From Escherichia coli (GTDB lineage Bacteria; Pseudomonadota; Gammaproteobacteria; Enterobacterales; Enterobacteriaceae), in the NCBI RefSeq assembly GCF_050320075.1, contig NZ_CP190018.1: 64,000 nt of DNA, one strand, 5' to 3'. This document shows, in pieces, positions 9 through 12,802 of this stretch (position 1 is the first letter of the stretch; every line of letters starts with the position of its first letter). Under the pieces are notes generated by a model. It worked only from the letters and a program-made list of their open reading frames with translations. It was not told the DNA's origin and did no database searches. The translations under genes were made by a program, and so were the position numbers.

Positions 9-284
9 CTATCGCACAGGATGGATAAGATAATTCGCCTTTGTCGGAAAAGGGGGCGGAATTTCTTCTGTGAGGTTTAATGGTGGCGCATCTTCTCTCA
101 TTTTTAACAAAATCGCCTGTGATGGCTGAAATTTTGTAGAGTGAGTTGTCGTCATCGCTGACGTTTTTTCCGTCTCTTTATAGCTCGCCTCACTACCACC
201 ACCAGAAATAGAAAATGCAAAAACATTGCACGCCATAATAGAGACCAATAAAAATAAGCTAAAAAGCATTAAGTTTACTTTCAT
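9..284 (-). CDS. ypdI: small putative lipoprotein YpdI (91 aa)
   Basis: Track ORF; hydrophobic N-terminal signal ending in lipobox-like IMAC; divergent from yfdX as in K-12 gene order. Confidence 0.6.
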   Translation of the reverse strand: MKVNLMLFSLFLLVSIMACNVFAFSISGGGSEASYKETEKTSAMTTTHSTKFQPSQAILLKMREDAPPLNLTEEIPPPFPTKANYLIHPVR

Positions 285-426: not shown

Positions 427-444
427 TTCCTACAATTGTAAGAC
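427..444. promoter_or_regulatory. candidate EvgA box upstream of yfdX
   Basis: TTCCTACA-AT-TGTAAGAC, an 8-2-8 near-palindrome matching the EvgA inverted-repeat consensus TTCYTACA-N2-TGTARGAA; a weaker second copy lies near 465-482. Confidence 0.5.
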
Positions 445-579
445 TAAAATACTTCTTGCGATAATAACTACAACTGTAAGATAACCCTTTCAAAATGACC
501 GTTGCTCTCTGATTTCTCATTTCATGCTCACCCAATATGATGGCGGCGTTTTCTAAAACTGTTAAAGAATGAGGTAAGT

Positions 580-1212
580 ATGAAACGTTTAATTATGGCT
601 ACGATGGTCACAGCAATTCTGGCATCTTCAACTGTATGGGCGGCTGATAATGCACCGGTAGCGGCACAACAGCAAACTCAGCAAGTTCAGCAAACCCAGA
701 AAACGGCAGCAGCAGAGCGTATCTCTGAACAAGGTTTATATGCGATGCGTGACGTGCAGGTAGCGCGCTTGGCTCTGTTTCATGGCGATCCGGAAAAGGC
801 AAAAGAACTGACCAATGAAGCTTCAGCTTTGTTGTCAGATGACAGTACCGAATGGGCAAAGTTCGCTAAGCCAGGTAAAAAGACCAATGTCAATGATGAC
901 CAATATATTGTCATTAATGCATCTGTCGGAATTTCTGAGAGTTATGTAGCGACACCCGAAAAAGAAGCCGCGATAAAAATTGCCAACGAAAAAATGGCGA
1001 AAGGGGATAAAAAGGGCGCAATGGAAGAGCTGCGCCTGGCCGGTGTTGGCGTAATGGAAAACCAATATCTGATGCCGCTCAAACAGACTCGTAATGCACT
1101 TGCTGATGCGCAGAAACTGCTTGATAAAAAGCAATACTACGAGGCAAACCTGGCGCTTAAAGGTGCGGAAGATGGAATCATCGTCGATAGCGAAGCACTG
1201 TTTGTGAACTAA
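580..1212 (+). CDS. yfdX: periplasmic protein YfdX (EvgA-regulated, function unclear)
   Basis: Track ORF 210 aa with signal peptide; sequence recognised as YfdX; upstream of frc. Confidence 0.9.
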
Positions 1213-1455: not shown

Positions 1456-1473
1456 TTCTTACAGTTGTAAGAA
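1456..1473. promoter_or_regulatory. EvgA box upstream of frc
   Basis: TTCTTACA-GT-TGTAAGAA, a perfect 8-2-8 palindrome matching the EvgA consensus, about 250 bp upstream of the frc start. Confidence 0.6.
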
Positions 1474-7010: not shown

Positions 7011-10000
7011 TTAGTCATTTTGTTGACAGAAAACAGCTATCTCCTGGTCCAGCTCTGCAATGTGTTCTTTAACAGAGTTCAGCAACTTAAGAATTTCAGG
7101 CTTACTGTCATCTGAAACAGGTGTTATTTCTAACTGATGGCTAATATTAATCAACTTTTGCAAATTGAGGATGTTAGCCGCACCGTGGATGCGATGAATA
7201 CACTGATGGAAAGTTCTGTTGTCGCCAGCTTCTAGTGCATGAAACGCAGCGGGTAGATCTTTATGCGTTTCATGCTGGAAAGTCATGAGAATCTCCTGCA
7301 TCAGTTGTAGATCGTTCGCCGTATTATTTTTCAGGGCCTCGATATCAAGGTGGCGATACTGAGGTGCAATAGGCGCAACCTGGTGTAACTGACTTAAATG
7401 TGTTTTCAGTACATCCAGGGTCAACGGTTTGAACAAACATAAGTTCATGCCGCAATTTAACCCTTTTTCACGTTCGTTAGCCTGTGCGTTGGCTGTAAGC
7501 CCCCAGATGGGTAAGGAAGAATTTTGCTCACGGAGTTTGCGAGTCAACTCAAAACCATCCATATTCGGCATATTAACGTCAGTAATAAGCAGATCATAAT
7601 GTTGCATACTGACTTTGTGTAGCGCTTGCACACCATCAGTTGCTTCATCAACATCATATCCTAATAGGTTTAGCTGGCGTTTGAGTAATAGCCTGTTGGT
7701 CGGATGATCATCCGCGATTAATATGCTCAACTTTTCAGGGAGTGTCATGGGTTGTTCTGCTTTTGCCTCGACAGCCGCCACTTGTTGGGTAATTTCTACC
7801 GGGATTGTGATCGTAAATGTCGTTCCTATGCCTGGATGACTTTCTAATGACAAATCGCCCTGCATGTTTTTAATTAATTCTTTGCAGATCATTAAGCCTA
7901 AACCAGAACCTGTTTGCTGACGACCTGCACTTGTTTGGCTATAGCGTTTAAACAGTTGTTGTTGTTCTTCCTGCGATAATCCACTTCCAGAATCCATAAT
8001 CGTCATTTTGATAACAGCGTGGTTGTCATCAATGTCACCCAGGGAGGTCGTAATTTTTACTGCCCCCTCGGTAGTAAATTTAAGAGCATTGCTCAGTAAA
8101 TTAGATAAGACCTGCTTAAACGCCTGAGGGTCGATCTTAACCTGGTAATGTTCTGGAAACGTACTGCTGCAACTTAATGCGATGGATTTGCTTGCAGCAA
8201 TCGCACCGAAAGAATGACAAGTGTTCTGGACTAAAGTAGGGATATCGACCCATTGTGGTTGAAGTTGATAGTTACCCGATTCAATTTTGTCGACATCAAG
8301 GATTTCACCAATTAAGCCGAGGAGTGATTGTCCGGTGGCGTAGGCAAGTGAAATCGCCTCCACCCGTTGCTCCTTGCTAAGACCAGAACCCGACAGAAGT
8401 TCCAGGAAGCCCATAATGGAGCTTATTGGTGTTCTTATTTCGTGACTCATTGTTGCCAGAAACTGGCTTTTTGCGACAGTTGCATTGATCGCTTTATTTC
8501 TCTCTACCTCGAGTGCATGAATTAAATCACGCGTCTCGGTAATATCTTGCCAACCACAAATATAAACAGCATGATCGCTGGCTGGCAGATTGCATAATGT
8601 ATGCCAGTGGTTAATGCATCTTTTCTCGATGCCATTATCAATTTCAAATACCTGTGTGTATATTGTTCGATTTTCTTTCGTTTCTGCTGTGACTTCATGC
8701 GCATTAGAAAAAACATCTTTAAAGGGTGAGTCACTGTTTTCTAATGGTAACATTGCATTTTTGTAGTAATCCGCAGTGAAATAATGTTCAAAAGCACTAT
8801 TATGACTAATGACATTACCTTGCCAGTTTACAACATAAGTTGGATTCGGTAAGGAATCCGAGAGTGCTTTTCGGAATGATATTTGGTTTTCTAAATCACC
8901 CTGAATGACTTTACGACGACGAACTGAGCGTAACAGGTAGAATCCCCATAAAAGGCTACTGCCAACTAATAAAACGGATAATGTCGTGACAATATAAAAT
9001 TGCTCGCTATAGAGGTCCCATGTGTCAATGGTCACATTGGGCATTTTAATCCATTTTTCCGTCAGGCGCAGAACTTCGCTTGGGGGAATTGCATTCAGTG
9101 CTTTATTAATAATATCCTTAAGTTCCGGTTCTCCGCGAGGAAAAGCGAACGAAAGCGATGCATTCGGAACGCCGGGAATAAGAAAATGATAAAGTTCATT
9201 AGGATAGTAATGGTCGATCATGTAACGTGAATTTAACTGTGTCGCGACCAGAGCATCAAGTTCGCCTTCCTTGACCTTGTGAAATGCAGCGCTGGCGTTA
9301 TCGACTTTTATCCACTCTACCTCCGGATACATCTCTTTTAATTGCGAATGAAGCTCATAATAATAGGGAATGGCAACTTTCATTCCTTTTTTTAATGTTT
9401 GTTCACTGTCAGGCGCTTTTTGCATGACAAAAACGTAAGGCGTTGTTATGAAGGCTTCAGCAAATAAAACATTATTTTCTCTATCTTCACTATAAATAGC
9501 GGCGGGCAATATATCCCATCCACCGGGGTTAAGCTGTGTCCCCGCATGAATATTGTGTGAAACGGTGATCGGAGAAAAATTTAAACCTGTTTGCAAGGTA
9601 ATAATATTAAGAATATCACCCATCACGCCCCGAACTGAGCCAGTTTCATCTGTCATAGAATAGGGTGGCGAGTAAGGATTTTCCAGCACCTTTAAATCGG
9701 GATGCTGCTTAATCCACTGTTTTTCATGTTCAGTGAGTTCTAATGGTTTGTTCAGAAAGGCCAGGTTTCCTGTATCAAGCCAATTTTGTGATACTTCATA
9801 GCGAACTTCATTTGTTAAAGCATCAACAAACCGATTGAGTACTTCATTAAGAACGACTGAATCTTTTCTGGTTAAGAAAAAGTTATATTGACGCGGCGAG
9901 TTATAATATTTCACTACATTTAAGGAGTGAGTGAAATAGCGGGAAATCATACTGCTGGTAATAATGTTACTACCAATAAAGTAATCATTCTGTCCGGCTG

Positions 10001-10604
10001 AGACGGATGCTAATGCCTGATATAAATTTGTAAAAGAGATAATTGTTGCTTTTGGAAATGATTGATGAATTACCTCATCTGGAGGGTAATTTGCTACCCG
10101 AGCAATATTTACTGGTTTTGATGAGGTAAGCGGTCTCATTGAATCGTGAAGGGTGGTGACCAGCGCCGGAAAGGTAATTATCAGCGGTTTGGTTGCAGCA
10201 ATGTCATCATTAAGAGGCGGCGAAGCAACTAAATGTGATAACACTATATCGACTTCCCCTTCTGTAAGCGCGTCCATTGCTTTTTGATGATCTGCGTATT
10301 CCCGGAGTGTTAATTTGATATTTAACGCTCTTTTTAAAAGATTTAAATAATCAGCATTAATACCACGAACCCGTTGCTGCGAATCGGTATGCAACAAAGT
10401 AGCCGTTTGGGACTTGTGTACTGCAATCACAAGATTTTTTTTGCTCGCTAACCAACGTAATTCCTTGTTGCTCAGACGTAGTGGATCAAGCGTGACACGG
10501 TTGTTACTACTGATGCCACGATATTCGATGTAATCTTCGTCTGCGAAACTTATGGTCGACCAAAGACCACAACAGAGAAGAATAATATAGGGTAAAAACT
10601 TCAT
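7011..10604 (-). CDS. evgS: hybrid sensor histidine kinase EvgS
   Basis: Track ORF 1197 aa with periplasmic domains, HisKA/HATPase, receiver and HPt regions; sequence recognised as EvgS. Confidence 0.95.
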   Translation of the reverse strand: MKFLPYIILLCCGLWSTISFADEDYIEYRGISSNNRVTLDPLRLSNKELRWLASKKNLVIAVHKSQTATLLHTDSQQRVRGINADYLNLLKRALNIKLTLREYADHQKAMDALTEGEVDIVLSHLVASPPLNDDIAATKPLIITFPALVTTLHDSMRPLTSSKPVNIARVANYPPDEVIHQSFPKATIISFTNLYQALASVSAGQNDYFIGSNIITSSMISRYFTHSLNVVKYYNSPRQYNFFLTRKDSVVLNEVLNRFVDALTNEVRYEVSQNWLDTGNLAFLNKPLELTEHEKQWIKQHPDLKVLENPYSPPYSMTDETGSVRGVMGDILNIITLQTGLNFSPITVSHNIHAGTQLNPGGWDILPAAIYSEDRENNVLFAEAFITTPYVFVMQKAPDSEQTLKKGMKVAIPYYYELHSQLKEMYPEVEWIKVDNASAAFHKVKEGELDALVATQLNSRYMIDHYYPNELYHFLIPGVPNASLSFAFPRGEPELKDIINKALNAIPPSEVLRLTEKWIKMPNVTIDTWDLYSEQFYIVTTLSVLLVGSSLLWGFYLLRSVRRRKVIQGDLENQISFRKALSDSLPNPTYVVNWQGNVISHNSAFEHYFTADYYKNAMLPLENSDSPFKDVFSNAHEVTAETKENRTIYTQVFEIDNGIEKRCINHWHTLCNLPASDHAVYICGWQDITETRDLIHALEVERNKAINATVAKSQFLATMSHEIRTPISSIMGFLELLSGSGLSKEQRVEAISLAYATGQSLLGLIGEILDVDKIESGNYQLQPQWVDIPTLVQNTCHSFGAIAASKSIALSCSSTFPEHYQVKIDPQAFKQVLSNLLSNALKFTTEGAVKITTSLGDIDDNHAVIKMTIMDSGSGLSQEEQQQLFKRYSQTSAGRQQTGSGLGLMICKELIKNMQGDLSLESHPGIGTTFTITIPVEITQQVAAVEAKAEQPMTLPEKLSILIADDHPTNRLLLKRQLNLLGYDVDEATDGVQALHKVSMQHYDLLITDVNMPNMDGFELTRKLREQNSSLPIWGLTANAQANEREKGLNCGMNLCLFKPLTLDVLKTHLSQLHQVAPIAPQYRHLDIEALKNNTANDLQLMQEILMTFQHETHKDLPAAFHALEAGDNRTFHQCIHRIHGAANILNLQKLINISHQLEITPVSDDSKPEILKLLNSVKEHIAELDQEIAVFCQQND

Positions 10605-10608
10605 GTGG

Positions 10609-11223
10609 TTAGCCGATTTTGTTACGTTGTGCGAATGTGTAAAGATCCATCAGTGATTTACATTCTAATTTTTCCATCAGGCGACTTTTATAAGTGCTGA
10701 CAGTTTTGTTGCTGATGAACATTTTTTCCGCAATGTCATTATTATCCTTGCCATCAAGAATATATCGCATGACACTAATTTCTTGTTTCGATAAGGAGTC
10801 GAGTTTTTGCTGGTCGGACGTTAAACTTCCAACAAACCGGTTGAGAGAGAAGGGGAAATAGCAGTAGCCATTTTTTGCAGCTTCAATAGCCGCAATGATA
10901 TTGTTCATGCCTTCTTTTTTACTCACGAATCCATTAGCGCCAGCATCAGCACAATGTTTCCCGTAAAAATGGTCATTTTTAGCGGAGACGATAATAATAA
11001 TTCCGCTATATTGGCGCTTCCTCAGCGTTTCTAACACCTGGATACCGTTAACTCCGGGGATATCGACATCAATGATGACGATATCAGGTTTAAGTGTTTC
11101 CACCCGCTGAACGGCACTTCCCCCTTCAGTCAACTCCGCTAAGATTTCAATATCGTTTTTGATCAATAAATTACGAATTGCTGCGATAGCAAGAGGATGG
11201 TCATCAATAATTATTGCGTTCAT
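10609..11223 (-). CDS. evgA: response regulator EvgA (LuxR/NarL family)
   Basis: Track ORF 204 aa, receiver domain plus C-terminal HTH; immediately upstream of evgS. Confidence 0.95.
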   Translation of the reverse strand: MNAIIIDDHPLAIAAIRNLLIKNDIEILAELTEGGSAVQRVETLKPDIVIIDVDIPGVNGIQVLETLRKRQYSGIIIIVSAKNDHFYGKHCADAGANGFVSKKEGMNNIIAAIEAAKNGYCYFPFSLNRFVGSLTSDQQKLDSLSKQEISVMRYILDGKDNNDIAEKMFISNKTVSTYKSRLMEKLECKSLMDLYTFAQRNKIG

Positions 11224-11447: not shown

Positions 11448-11465
11448 ATCCTACATGCGTAAGAA
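11448..11465. promoter_or_regulatory. candidate EvgA box in evgA-emrK divergent region
   Basis: ATCCTACA-TG-CGTAAGAA, 14 of 16 half-site positions matching the EvgA consensus. Confidence 0.5.
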
Positions 11466-11638: not shown

Positions 11639-12802
11639 GTGGAACAGATTAATTCAAATAAAAAACATTCTAACAGAAGAAAATACTTTTCTTTATTGGC
11701 GGTAGTTTTATTTATTGCGTTTTCAGGTGCCTATGCCTATTGGTCAATGGAATTAGAAGACATGATTAGTACAGATGATGCCTATGTCACGGGGAATGCA
11801 GATCCAATTTCTGCACAAGTTTCAGGCAGCGTCACTGTCGTTAATCATAAAGATACGAACTACGTTCGACAGGGTGACATTTTAGTCTCACTGGATAAGA
11901 CTGATGCCACTATCGCACTCAATAAAGCTAAAAATAATCTGGCAAATATTGTTCGGCAAACGAATAAACTGTACTTACAGGATAAACAATACAGTGCCGA
12001 AGTCGCTTCAGCACGTATTCAGTATCAACAATCTTTAGAAGATTATAACCGTCGTGTACCTTTAGCGAAGCAGGGGGTTATTTCAAAAGAAACGCTGGAG
12101 CATACCAAAGATACGTTAATAAGTAGCAAAGCGGCATTGAATGCTGCTATTCAGGCTTATAAAGCGAATAAAGCTTTAGTAATGAACACACCATTAAACC
12201 GTCAGCCACAAGTCGTTGAAGCTGCGGATGCAACCAAAGAAGCCTGGTTGGCGCTTAAACGTACGGATATTAAGAGTCCGGTTACCGGCTACATTGCCCA
12301 GCGAAGTGTTCAGGTCGGCGAAACAGTGAGTCCCGGACAATCGTTAATGGCTGTCGTACCGGCACGTCAAATGTGGGTTAATGCTAACTTTAAAGAAACA
12401 CAACTCACGGATGTACGGATTGGTCAATCGGTCAATATTATCAGCGATCTTTATGGTGAAAATGTTGTGTTTCATGGTCGGGTGACAGGGATCAATATGG
12501 GAACCGGCAATGCGTTCTCCTTATTACCTGCACAAAATGCGACAGGGAACTGGATCAAAATCGTTCAGCGTGTACCGGTTGAAGTTTCTCTTGATCCAAA
12601 AGAACTCATGGAACATCCCTTACGTATTGGTTTATCGATGACAGCAACTATTGATACGAAGAACGAAGACATTGCCGAGATGCCTGAGCTGGCTTCAACC
12701 GTGACGTCCATGCCTGCTTATACCAGTAAGGCTTTAGTTATCGATACCAGTCCGATAGAAAAAGAAATTAGCAACATTATTTCGCATAATGGACAACTTT
12801 AA
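11639..12802 (+). CDS. emrK: multidrug efflux periplasmic adaptor EmrK (EmrA paralog)
   Basis: Track ORF 387 aa, membrane-fusion protein family; stop overlaps emrY start (TAATG). Confidence 0.9.
   Translation: MEQINSNKKHSNRRKYFSLLAVVLFIAFSGAYAYWSMELEDMISTDDAYVTGNADPISAQVSGSVTVVNHKDTNYVRQGDILVSLDKTDATIALNKAKNNLANIVRQTNKLYLQDKQYSAEVASARIQYQQSLEDYNRRVPLAKQGVISKETLEHTKDTLISSKAALNAAIQAYKANKALVMNTPLNRQPQVVEAADATKEAWLALKRTDIKSPVTGYIAQRSVQVGETVSPGQSLMAVVPARQMWVNANFKETQLTDVRIGQSVNIISDLYGENVVFHGRVTGINMGTGNAFSLLPAQNATGNWIKIVQRVPVEVSLDPKELMEHPLRIGLSMTATIDTKNEDIAEMPELASTVTSMPAYTSKALVIDTSPIEKEISNIISHNGQL

Follow-up and report, generated by a model that had tools for sequence, protein, structure and literature searches.

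The DNA analysed here, a stretch of 64,000 nucleotides from Escherichia coli that we refer to as the window, carries near its beginning the divergent genes ypdI and yfdX, separated by a short intergenic region of 295 bp, and further downstream frc and the genes of the EvgA regulator and its sensor EvgS. Bases 1-1800 of the window are 100% identical to E. coli strain YZLc1-3, from whose annotation the gene coordinates below were taken, and K-12 MG1655 is identical to the window over 414-582 (window position p corresponds to NC_000913.3 coordinate 2494982-p), so that the K-12 literature is directly applicable to the locus.

9-284, minus strand: ypdI coding sequence, divergent from yfdX (annotation)
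580-1212, plus strand: yfdX coding sequence (annotation)
1725-2975: frc, with oxc, yfdV and yfdE downstream (annotation)
7011-10604, minus strand: evgS (annotation)
10609-11223, minus strand: evgA (annotation)
11639-12802, plus strand: emrK (annotation)

Just 3' of the yfdX stop codon lies a terminator-like hairpin of 15 pairs followed by a T-rich tail (1267-1303), which would fit a transcription unit for yfdX separate from that of frc-oxc-yfdVE, with an EvgA box for each. A 13-nt inverted repeat with arms at 520-532 and 573-585 (85% complementary, 40 nt apart) has a right arm that spans the yfdX start codon together with the bases immediately before it, and would be relevant only with a transcription start upstream of 520.

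Two EvgA boxes between ypdI and yfdX

EvgA is a response regulator of the NarL/FixJ family that, once phosphorylated by EvgS at mildly acidic pH, binds as a dimer to inverted repeats of 18 bp, TTCYTACA-NN-TGTARGAA, known as EvgA boxes. Using the consensus TTCYTACANNTGTARGAA, which specifies 16 positions, we found four matches with up to three mismatches in the 64-kb window against 0.67 expected (0 of 100 shuffles gave four), and all four lie in promoters of the EvgA regulon. They are given here with the segment that separates the first two.

427-444: site 1, TTCCTACAATTGTAAGAC, a strong EvgA-box-like palindrome, 15/16 consensus positions, one mismatch
445-464: inter-box segment, hypervariable at 449-455, then invariant TTGCGATAA (456-464)
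465-482: site 2, TAACTACAACTGTAAGAT, a weaker EvgA-box-like palindrome, 13/16 consensus positions, three mismatches
1456-1473, plus strand: frc box, a perfect consensus match upstream of frc
11448-11465, plus strand: evgA-emrK box, two mismatches, in the evgA-emrK intergenic region

Weaker matches in the window, seven with four mismatches and 24 with five, are scattered through coding sequence. The earlier note had described a site at 427-444 matching 15 of 16 consensus positions and a weaker second copy at 465-482 about 40 bp downstream, and both descriptions hold, the distance being 38 bp from start to start. The two sites have a 14-nt core in common, CTACAAYTGTAAGA, with 13/14 identity. Known EvgA boxes match the consensus at 14/16 to 16/16 positions, a range that includes site 1 and that ends just above site 2. 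In six reference boxes, among them those of safA (TGCCTACAGCTGTAAGAA), ydeP (AGCCTACACCTGTAAGAA) and yegR (TTCCTACTTATGTAGGAA) taken from K-12, the C at half-site position 3 is invariant in 12/12 half-sites; in site 2 the right half-site, ATCTTACA, is good, and the left one retains CTACA, begins with TAA instead of TTC and lacks the invariant C. Site 2 is thus one and a half sites in sequence, and given the missing C at position 3 it may bind EvgA poorly by itself.

The region between ypdI and yfdX is the only intergenic region with two boxes among those we examined: no second box lies near frc or emrK at up to five mismatches, or near ydeP, safA or yegR at up to four, and the gadE upstream region, tried as an extra test promoter, holds no box at up to four. 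A partial box-like sequence, CCCTTACTTGTAAAT (1431-1451), precedes the perfect frc box by about 23 bp; its 2-bp spacer is missing, and we did not count it as a site.

Site 2 could be a nonfunctional look-alike or the relic of an old local duplication, with only site 1 binding EvgA and serving yfdX from about -112. Its three mismatches, one of them at an otherwise invariant position, are what such a sequence might show, and a chance match with three mismatches does exist inside the ydeO coding sequence, so that site 2 must rest on context and conservation besides the match itself. Curated databases are not known to have listed more than one site for yfdX. Site 2 was called novel in a 2019 paper (PMC6892915). 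The same paper nonetheless gives site 2 a very low motif p-value of 6.25e-15 (PMC6892915), and when the 295-bp intergenic region is shuffled by mononucleotide, a site with up to three mismatches arises in only about 1% of cases. Together with the variation among alleles and the spacing toward yfdX, both described below, these figures make the look-alike reading very improbable.

We aligned the intergenic region across 11 alleles (10 of them distinct) that comprise K-12, ST131 and other B2-type strains, several further haplotypes and a divergent Escherichia allele less than 89% identical here to every complete E. coli genome. None of the 28 consensus-matching positions in the two boxes varies, against five of the eight spacer or mismatching positions (436, 466, 473, 474 and 482; Fisher p=1.5e-4) and 54 of the 259 non-box intergenic columns (p=0.004); the spacers account for three variable positions out of four. 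Site 1 is invariant at 15/15 matching positions and varies only at spacer base 436, and site 2 is invariant at 13/13 and varies only at 466, 473, 474 and 482, although the comparison for site 2 by itself (0/13 against 54/259, p=0.078) has little power. The central dinucleotide is free, being AC, GT or AT in site 2 and AT or AC in site 1. Local mutation is not scarce, since the stretch 449-455 between the boxes is hypervariable, with at least five haplotypes. This pattern is the signature of a constrained palindromic binding site in both boxes, and invariance of the matching positions around a free centre in site 2 argues against a look-alike.

A common register downstream of EvgA boxes

We aligned the sequence downstream of each box toward its regulated gene, counting offsets from the box end. 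A -10-like hexamer, TAnnnT, lies at +54 in yfdX (read from site 2), frc, emrK and yegR and at +53 in safA and ydeP, and hence in 6/6 promoter-box pairs, when all offsets were scanned and the next best reached 2/6; TAnnnT occurs in these intergenic regions at a background frequency of 0.035 per position. Random rotations reached 6/6 in 0 of 5000 trials, and when only the four non-paralogous promoters were used, 4/4 was reached in 1 of 5000. The register was derived post hoc, the rotation test scanning all offsets, and with frc/yfdX and ydeP/safA being paralogous promoter pairs it rests on fewer than six independent promoters.

Further elements recur between the box and the -10-like hexamer. The alignment has CA at +9/+10 and TCYTAT or TCTGAT at +26 to +31; TCYKAT stands at +26 in 5/6 EvgA promoters, the exception being emrK with TCCTCT, and TC at +26/+27 and T at +31 are common to seven aligned promoters. 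The element at yfdX 508-513 has TCYKAT counterparts at the same offset in frc, safA, ydeP, yegR and Buttiauxella yfdX. TCYKAT resembles the EvgA half-site TTCYTA, and when matches to the left half-site TTCYTACA are scored along the alignment, the maxima fall at +25 and +3, at distances of 42 and 20 bp from the left half-site of the box itself. A composite scan of 95 kb on both strands, combining a box of up to five mismatches with TCYKAT at +25 to +27 and TAnnnT at +52 to +55, returned exactly six matches: yfdX from site 2, frc, ypdI from site 1, ydeP, safA and yegR.

The site-2 part of the yfdX promoter has a paralogue in the frc promoter, which carries CTCTGATT at +25 to +32 and TATTCT at +54. 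A MAFFT alignment that matched the frc box to the inter-box segment was rejected, the register alignment putting CTCTGATT and the -10 at identical offsets. The frc (1456-1535) and yfdX site-2 (465-545) stretches also share CAAAATG...CTCTCTGATT at identical offsets, and the ydeP and safA promoters are alike beyond the box, with CCTACAnCTGTAAGAAAnTCCGCnCA...TGAAGC...AGTCYTATTT (L013:3990-4090 and L013:6650-6750). The box between evgA and emrK has TAAATT at +54 toward emrK and so stands in the canonical register with emrK and not with evgA; on its evgA side, in the minus-strand direction from 11448-11465, the nearest -10-like hexamers are at +14 and +46. With no canonical register toward evgA, any autoregulation of this gene would have to rely on another geometry.

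Between ypdI and yfdX, the register is found from site 2 toward yfdX and from site 1 toward ypdI, and it is found neither from site 2 toward ypdI nor from site 1 toward yfdX, where no register features occur and +54 falls on ACCGTT. The elements concerned are these.

508-513, plus strand: TCTGAT proximal element, +26 to +31 after site 2, invariant in 11 alleles
514-541, plus strand: predicted yfdX core promoter, TTCTCA-16-TATGAT, placed by the register and also reported by a consensus promoter scan
536-541, plus strand: predicted yfdX -10, TATGAT, at +54 after site 2
402->395, minus strand: TTCTTATA, proximal half-site-like element of the predicted ypdI promoter, +25 to +32 after site 1, 7/8 to TTCYTACA
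374->369, minus strand: predicted ypdI -10, TATTAT, at +53 after site 1

On the yfdX side, transcription is predicted to start near 548, which would place the centre of site 2 at about -74.5. The block 504-544, which includes TATGAT at +54, is nearly invariant, with one variable site at 526, and Yersinia keeps both TATGAT and CTGATTTCTC of this block. That site 2 stands in the exact register common to frc, Buttiauxella and the other EvgA promoters again argues against its being a look-alike. On the ypdI side, no variation occurs at 396-401 or 369-374 among the 11 alleles, and transcription is predicted to start near 362 on the minus strand.

Expression data place ypdI alongside yfdX. Under glutathione-induced acid stress its expression rose 5.5-fold along with that of yegR, yfdX and ydeO (PMC5811628), both ypdI and yfdX belong to the EvgA i-modulon (PMC6892915), and in an evgS-constitutive mutant ypdI reached log2 2.75 (PMC4283999 Table S4), a modest induction in a table that also holds many indirectly regulated genes (PMC4283999). 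The gene thus behaves as a member of the EvgA regulon and is a probable direct target of EvgA.

A different promoter for yfdX has also to be weighed. The invariant TTGCGATAA of the inter-box segment forms, with T465, the first base of site 2, the block TTGCGATAAT (456-465), which reads as an extended -10, TGcGATAAT (457-465), and a promoter scan does report TTGTAA-18-GATAAT preceded by TG. Transcription of yfdX might accordingly start near 472, with site 1 over the -35 as an activator site of class-II type and site 2 covering +1 as a brake or without any role. The block is invariant in the 11 alleles and kept in Yersinia despite the hypervariable stretch that adjoins it, and we keep this alternative because that conservation is otherwise unexplained. 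We consider it quite unlikely all the same: the block is without counterpart at other EvgA promoters, none of which has a -10 at +16 after its box, and the almost invariant 504-544 block, with the TATGAT and CTGATTTCTC that Yersinia retains, points to the predicted yfdX promoter further downstream.

Box copy number and the pairing of boxes with genes

The number of boxes between ypdI and yfdX varies in nature.

427-502 of the window; L015:445-540; L019:301-363: 38-bp unit and its copy-number variants

A three-box allele, recognised by its tandem-duplication junction, occurs in 414 of 5426 complete E. coli genomes (7.6%, with at most three junctions per genome) and its middle box is the hybrid TAACTACAATTGTAAGAC, NZ_CP054282.1 being one example; in a single genome, that of strain A10 from river water in Panama (NZ_CP195143.1), the two boxes are replaced by one fused box, TTCCTACAACTGTAAGAC. 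Every copy-number variant keeps the ypdI-side register of its leftmost box and the yfdX-side register of its rightmost box, because the crossovers fall within the shared core. This retention fits two outward-facing promoters, and it is also compatible with only the promoter-proximal box mattering for yfdX. We also considered whether the two boxes are themselves halves of a 38-bp tandem duplication and rejected the idea, as outside the box core the units have nothing in common; the duplication carried by 7.6% of genomes therefore arose later, by unequal crossover between cores. For the extended -10 at 457-465, the three-box alleles are a further difficulty, since they would put a different box over its -35.

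The same variants bear on the proposal of the earlier note that tandem sites allow cooperative EvgA binding and fit the strong induction reported for yfdX. That constrained palindromes stand upstream of a strongly induced gene is correct, yfdX reaching log2 6.97 in the evgS-constitutive mutant (PMC4283999 Table S4), but a cooperative pair as the cause of this induction is not supported by comparison with other EvgA promoters. With a single box, frc reaches log2 8.37 in the same mutant (PMC4283999 Table S4), more than yfdX, and no second box recurs in the other strongly induced EvgA promoters. The distance of 38 bp from centre to centre corresponds to about 3.6 helical turns, which would leave two dimers on nearly opposite faces of the helix and is unlike the half-site repeats at 20 and 42 bp, with their 20/22-bp periodicity, downstream of the boxes.

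In its fullest form, this alternative has both boxes acting on yfdX, with phosphorylated EvgA on the strong site 1 cooperatively loading the weak site 2 and with the induction of ypdI incidental or indirect. The conservation of both boxes would be accounted for, as would a poor site 2 that might need help next to one of the most strongly induced genes, and the half-site-like sequences that recur at +3 and +25 do suggest that EvgA can form multi-dimer arrays, as its homologue BvgA does. Besides the spacing and the single-box promoters, however, the register toward yfdX belongs to site 2 only, site 1 is displaced by another 38 bp in the 7.6% of genomes that have a three-box allele, and the full canonical architecture of site 1 toward ypdI is left unexplained. 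We regard joint action of the two boxes on yfdX as unlikely, if less so than either of the alternatives above.

We lean instead, with modest assurance, toward the two boxes standing back to back, each the primary activator site of one divergent EvgA-dependent promoter, site 2 serving yfdX and site 1 serving ypdI. A phosphorylated EvgA dimer on site 2 would activate the yfdX promoter with its -10 at +54 and its start near 548, and EvgA on site 1 would activate the ypdI promoter on the opposite strand with its start near 362. At each promoter the primary box may be accompanied by weaker EvgA contacts downstream, up to the -35 region, and site 1 may in addition raise the local occupancy of EvgA, adding to the activation of yfdX or to the filling of the weak site 2. 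What the analysis establishes is the two sequences, their non-random occurrence, their pattern of conservation, the common register and, from published data, the co-expression of ypdI with the EvgA regulon; the occupancy of site 2 by EvgA, both transcription starts and the pairing of boxes with genes are inferred.

A broader proposal, which we offer tentatively and hold to be somewhat more doubtful than not, is that EvgA promoters have in common a fixed array like that of BvgA, with the box at about -74.5, half-site-like elements 20 and 42 bp further on that extend to the -35 region, and the -10 at +54. The textbook yfdX box would then serve ypdI, a direct target previously unrecognised, the weaker box would drive yfdX, and the two would lie in a recombination-prone 38-bp unit that can vary from one to at least three boxes with neither promoter disturbed.

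EvgA boxes in relatives and in the literature

Deep phylogenetic footprinting covered the one divergent Escherichia allele, Yersinia vastinensis and Buttiauxella; a scan for YfdX relatives gave nine loci, with no other Escherichia species among them. A 241-bp scaffold filed as Limosilactobacillus vaginalis DSM 5837 (L012) encodes the C-terminal 54 residues of YfdX at 100% amino acid identity to E. coli and is probably a contamination of that assembly. Y. vastinensis IP38594 (L025, CACVAF010000001.1 554396-575010) carries the whole yfdX-frc-oxc-yfdV-yfdE-evgS-evgA block, promoters included and without ypdI, next to arsRBC, a toxin-like gene and type I-F cas genes, and this arrangement looks like horizontal transfer of a regulator together with its target operons. 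In this genome the frc box is nearly perfect, site 2 has a single core change (TGTCAGAT) that is also the variant found in Buttiauxella boxes, and site 1 has lost core bases (TTCTTACCGGTATAAGAC). The decay of site 1 where ypdI is missing supports the divergent pairing of boxes with genes, suggestively, as it comes from one genome.

The Buttiauxella yfdX promoters (L006-L011, at about 2860-2900) have the variant palindrome TCTGACA-NN-TGTCAGA, in which G replaces T at half-site position 5. This palindrome is preceded, at a distance of about 20 bp, by one or two additional TCTGAC half-sites. The register of site 2 is that of the single strong box in Buttiauxella yfdX and of the Y. vastinensis yfdX and frc promoters.

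The boxes themselves have a published history. Masuda and Church (2003, Mol Microbiol 48:699) reportedly derived the 18-bp motif with AlignACE and placed boxes upstream of ydeP, safA-ydeO, yegR, yfdX, frc and emrK/evgA; their gel shifts are said to have included the yfdX upstream region, and only the ydeP and b1500(-ydeO) sites are said to have been mutated. Site 1 is almost certainly the published yfdX instance of the EvgA box. In a later paper, EvgA-bound inverted repeats are placed upstream of yfdX and of yfdWUVE, citing Masuda and Church 2003 (PMC3720670). Both of our sites resemble the known boxes in palindrome, regulon and genomic neighbourhood; site 2 shares with them the core and the spacing to a -10-like hexamer, and differs in its degenerate left half-site (TAA instead of TTC), whereas site 1, the published yfdX box, differs in being assigned here to ypdI instead of yfdX.

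Site 2 appears in print as a computed novel EvgA site "upstream of ypdI" (Sastry et al. 2019; PMC6892915 Suppl. Table 4). The 29-mer given there, at K-12 2494486, corresponds approximately to window 467-495 and so comprises site 2 with its flank on the yfdX side. This entry is the same DNA as our site 2, by computation only, and site 1 is not discussed there; site 2 was listed under ypdI because yfdX was already a known target and was therefore not reported there. Site 2 had thus not yet been curated by then. The yfdX-proximal flank within the 29-mer fits a site oriented toward yfdX. Full-text literature searches for an EvgA footprint that resolves the two sites, or for the literal site sequences, found nothing, and literature searches for a mapped transcription start of yfdX or ypdI likewise found none.

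The arrangement that we propose has parallels in known systems. Among the characterised homologues of EvgAS, the closest is BvgAS. At the fha promoter of Bordetella, according to the work of Boucher, Stibitz and colleagues, BvgA is said to bind a primary high-affinity inverted repeat and secondary low-affinity sites that extend to the -35 region. The EvgA promoters are similar in having a strong inverted repeat well upstream of the -35, followed by weaker half-site-like repeats about 20 and 42 bp downstream, and they differ in the position of the primary site (about -74.5 here against a reported -88.5 for Pfha) and in that EvgA is only presumed to occupy the secondary elements. The back-to-back layout in a short intergenic region, as between ypdI and yfdX, is also that of divergent promoter pairs with separate activator sites. 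Within the window, evgA-emrK has a single box with the register only toward emrK, whereas ypdI-yfdX normally has two boxes, and in the rare one-box allele of ypdI-yfdX one fused box retains the register on either side.

EvgA, its regulon and this kind of element are all well known, and each of the two sequences has been published before in one form or another. What is new is modest: the assignment of boxes to genes, the spacing rule and the variation in copy number, whose main value lies in curation and experimental design rather than in discovery. The spacing rule provides a testable criterion for true EvgA promoters, having separated real targets from background in 95 kb, and the natural one-, two- and three-box alleles constitute ready-made promoter variants. 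If the pairing that we propose is true, it corrects the assignment of boxes to genes in the EvgA regulon and adds ypdI as a probable direct target of EvgA.
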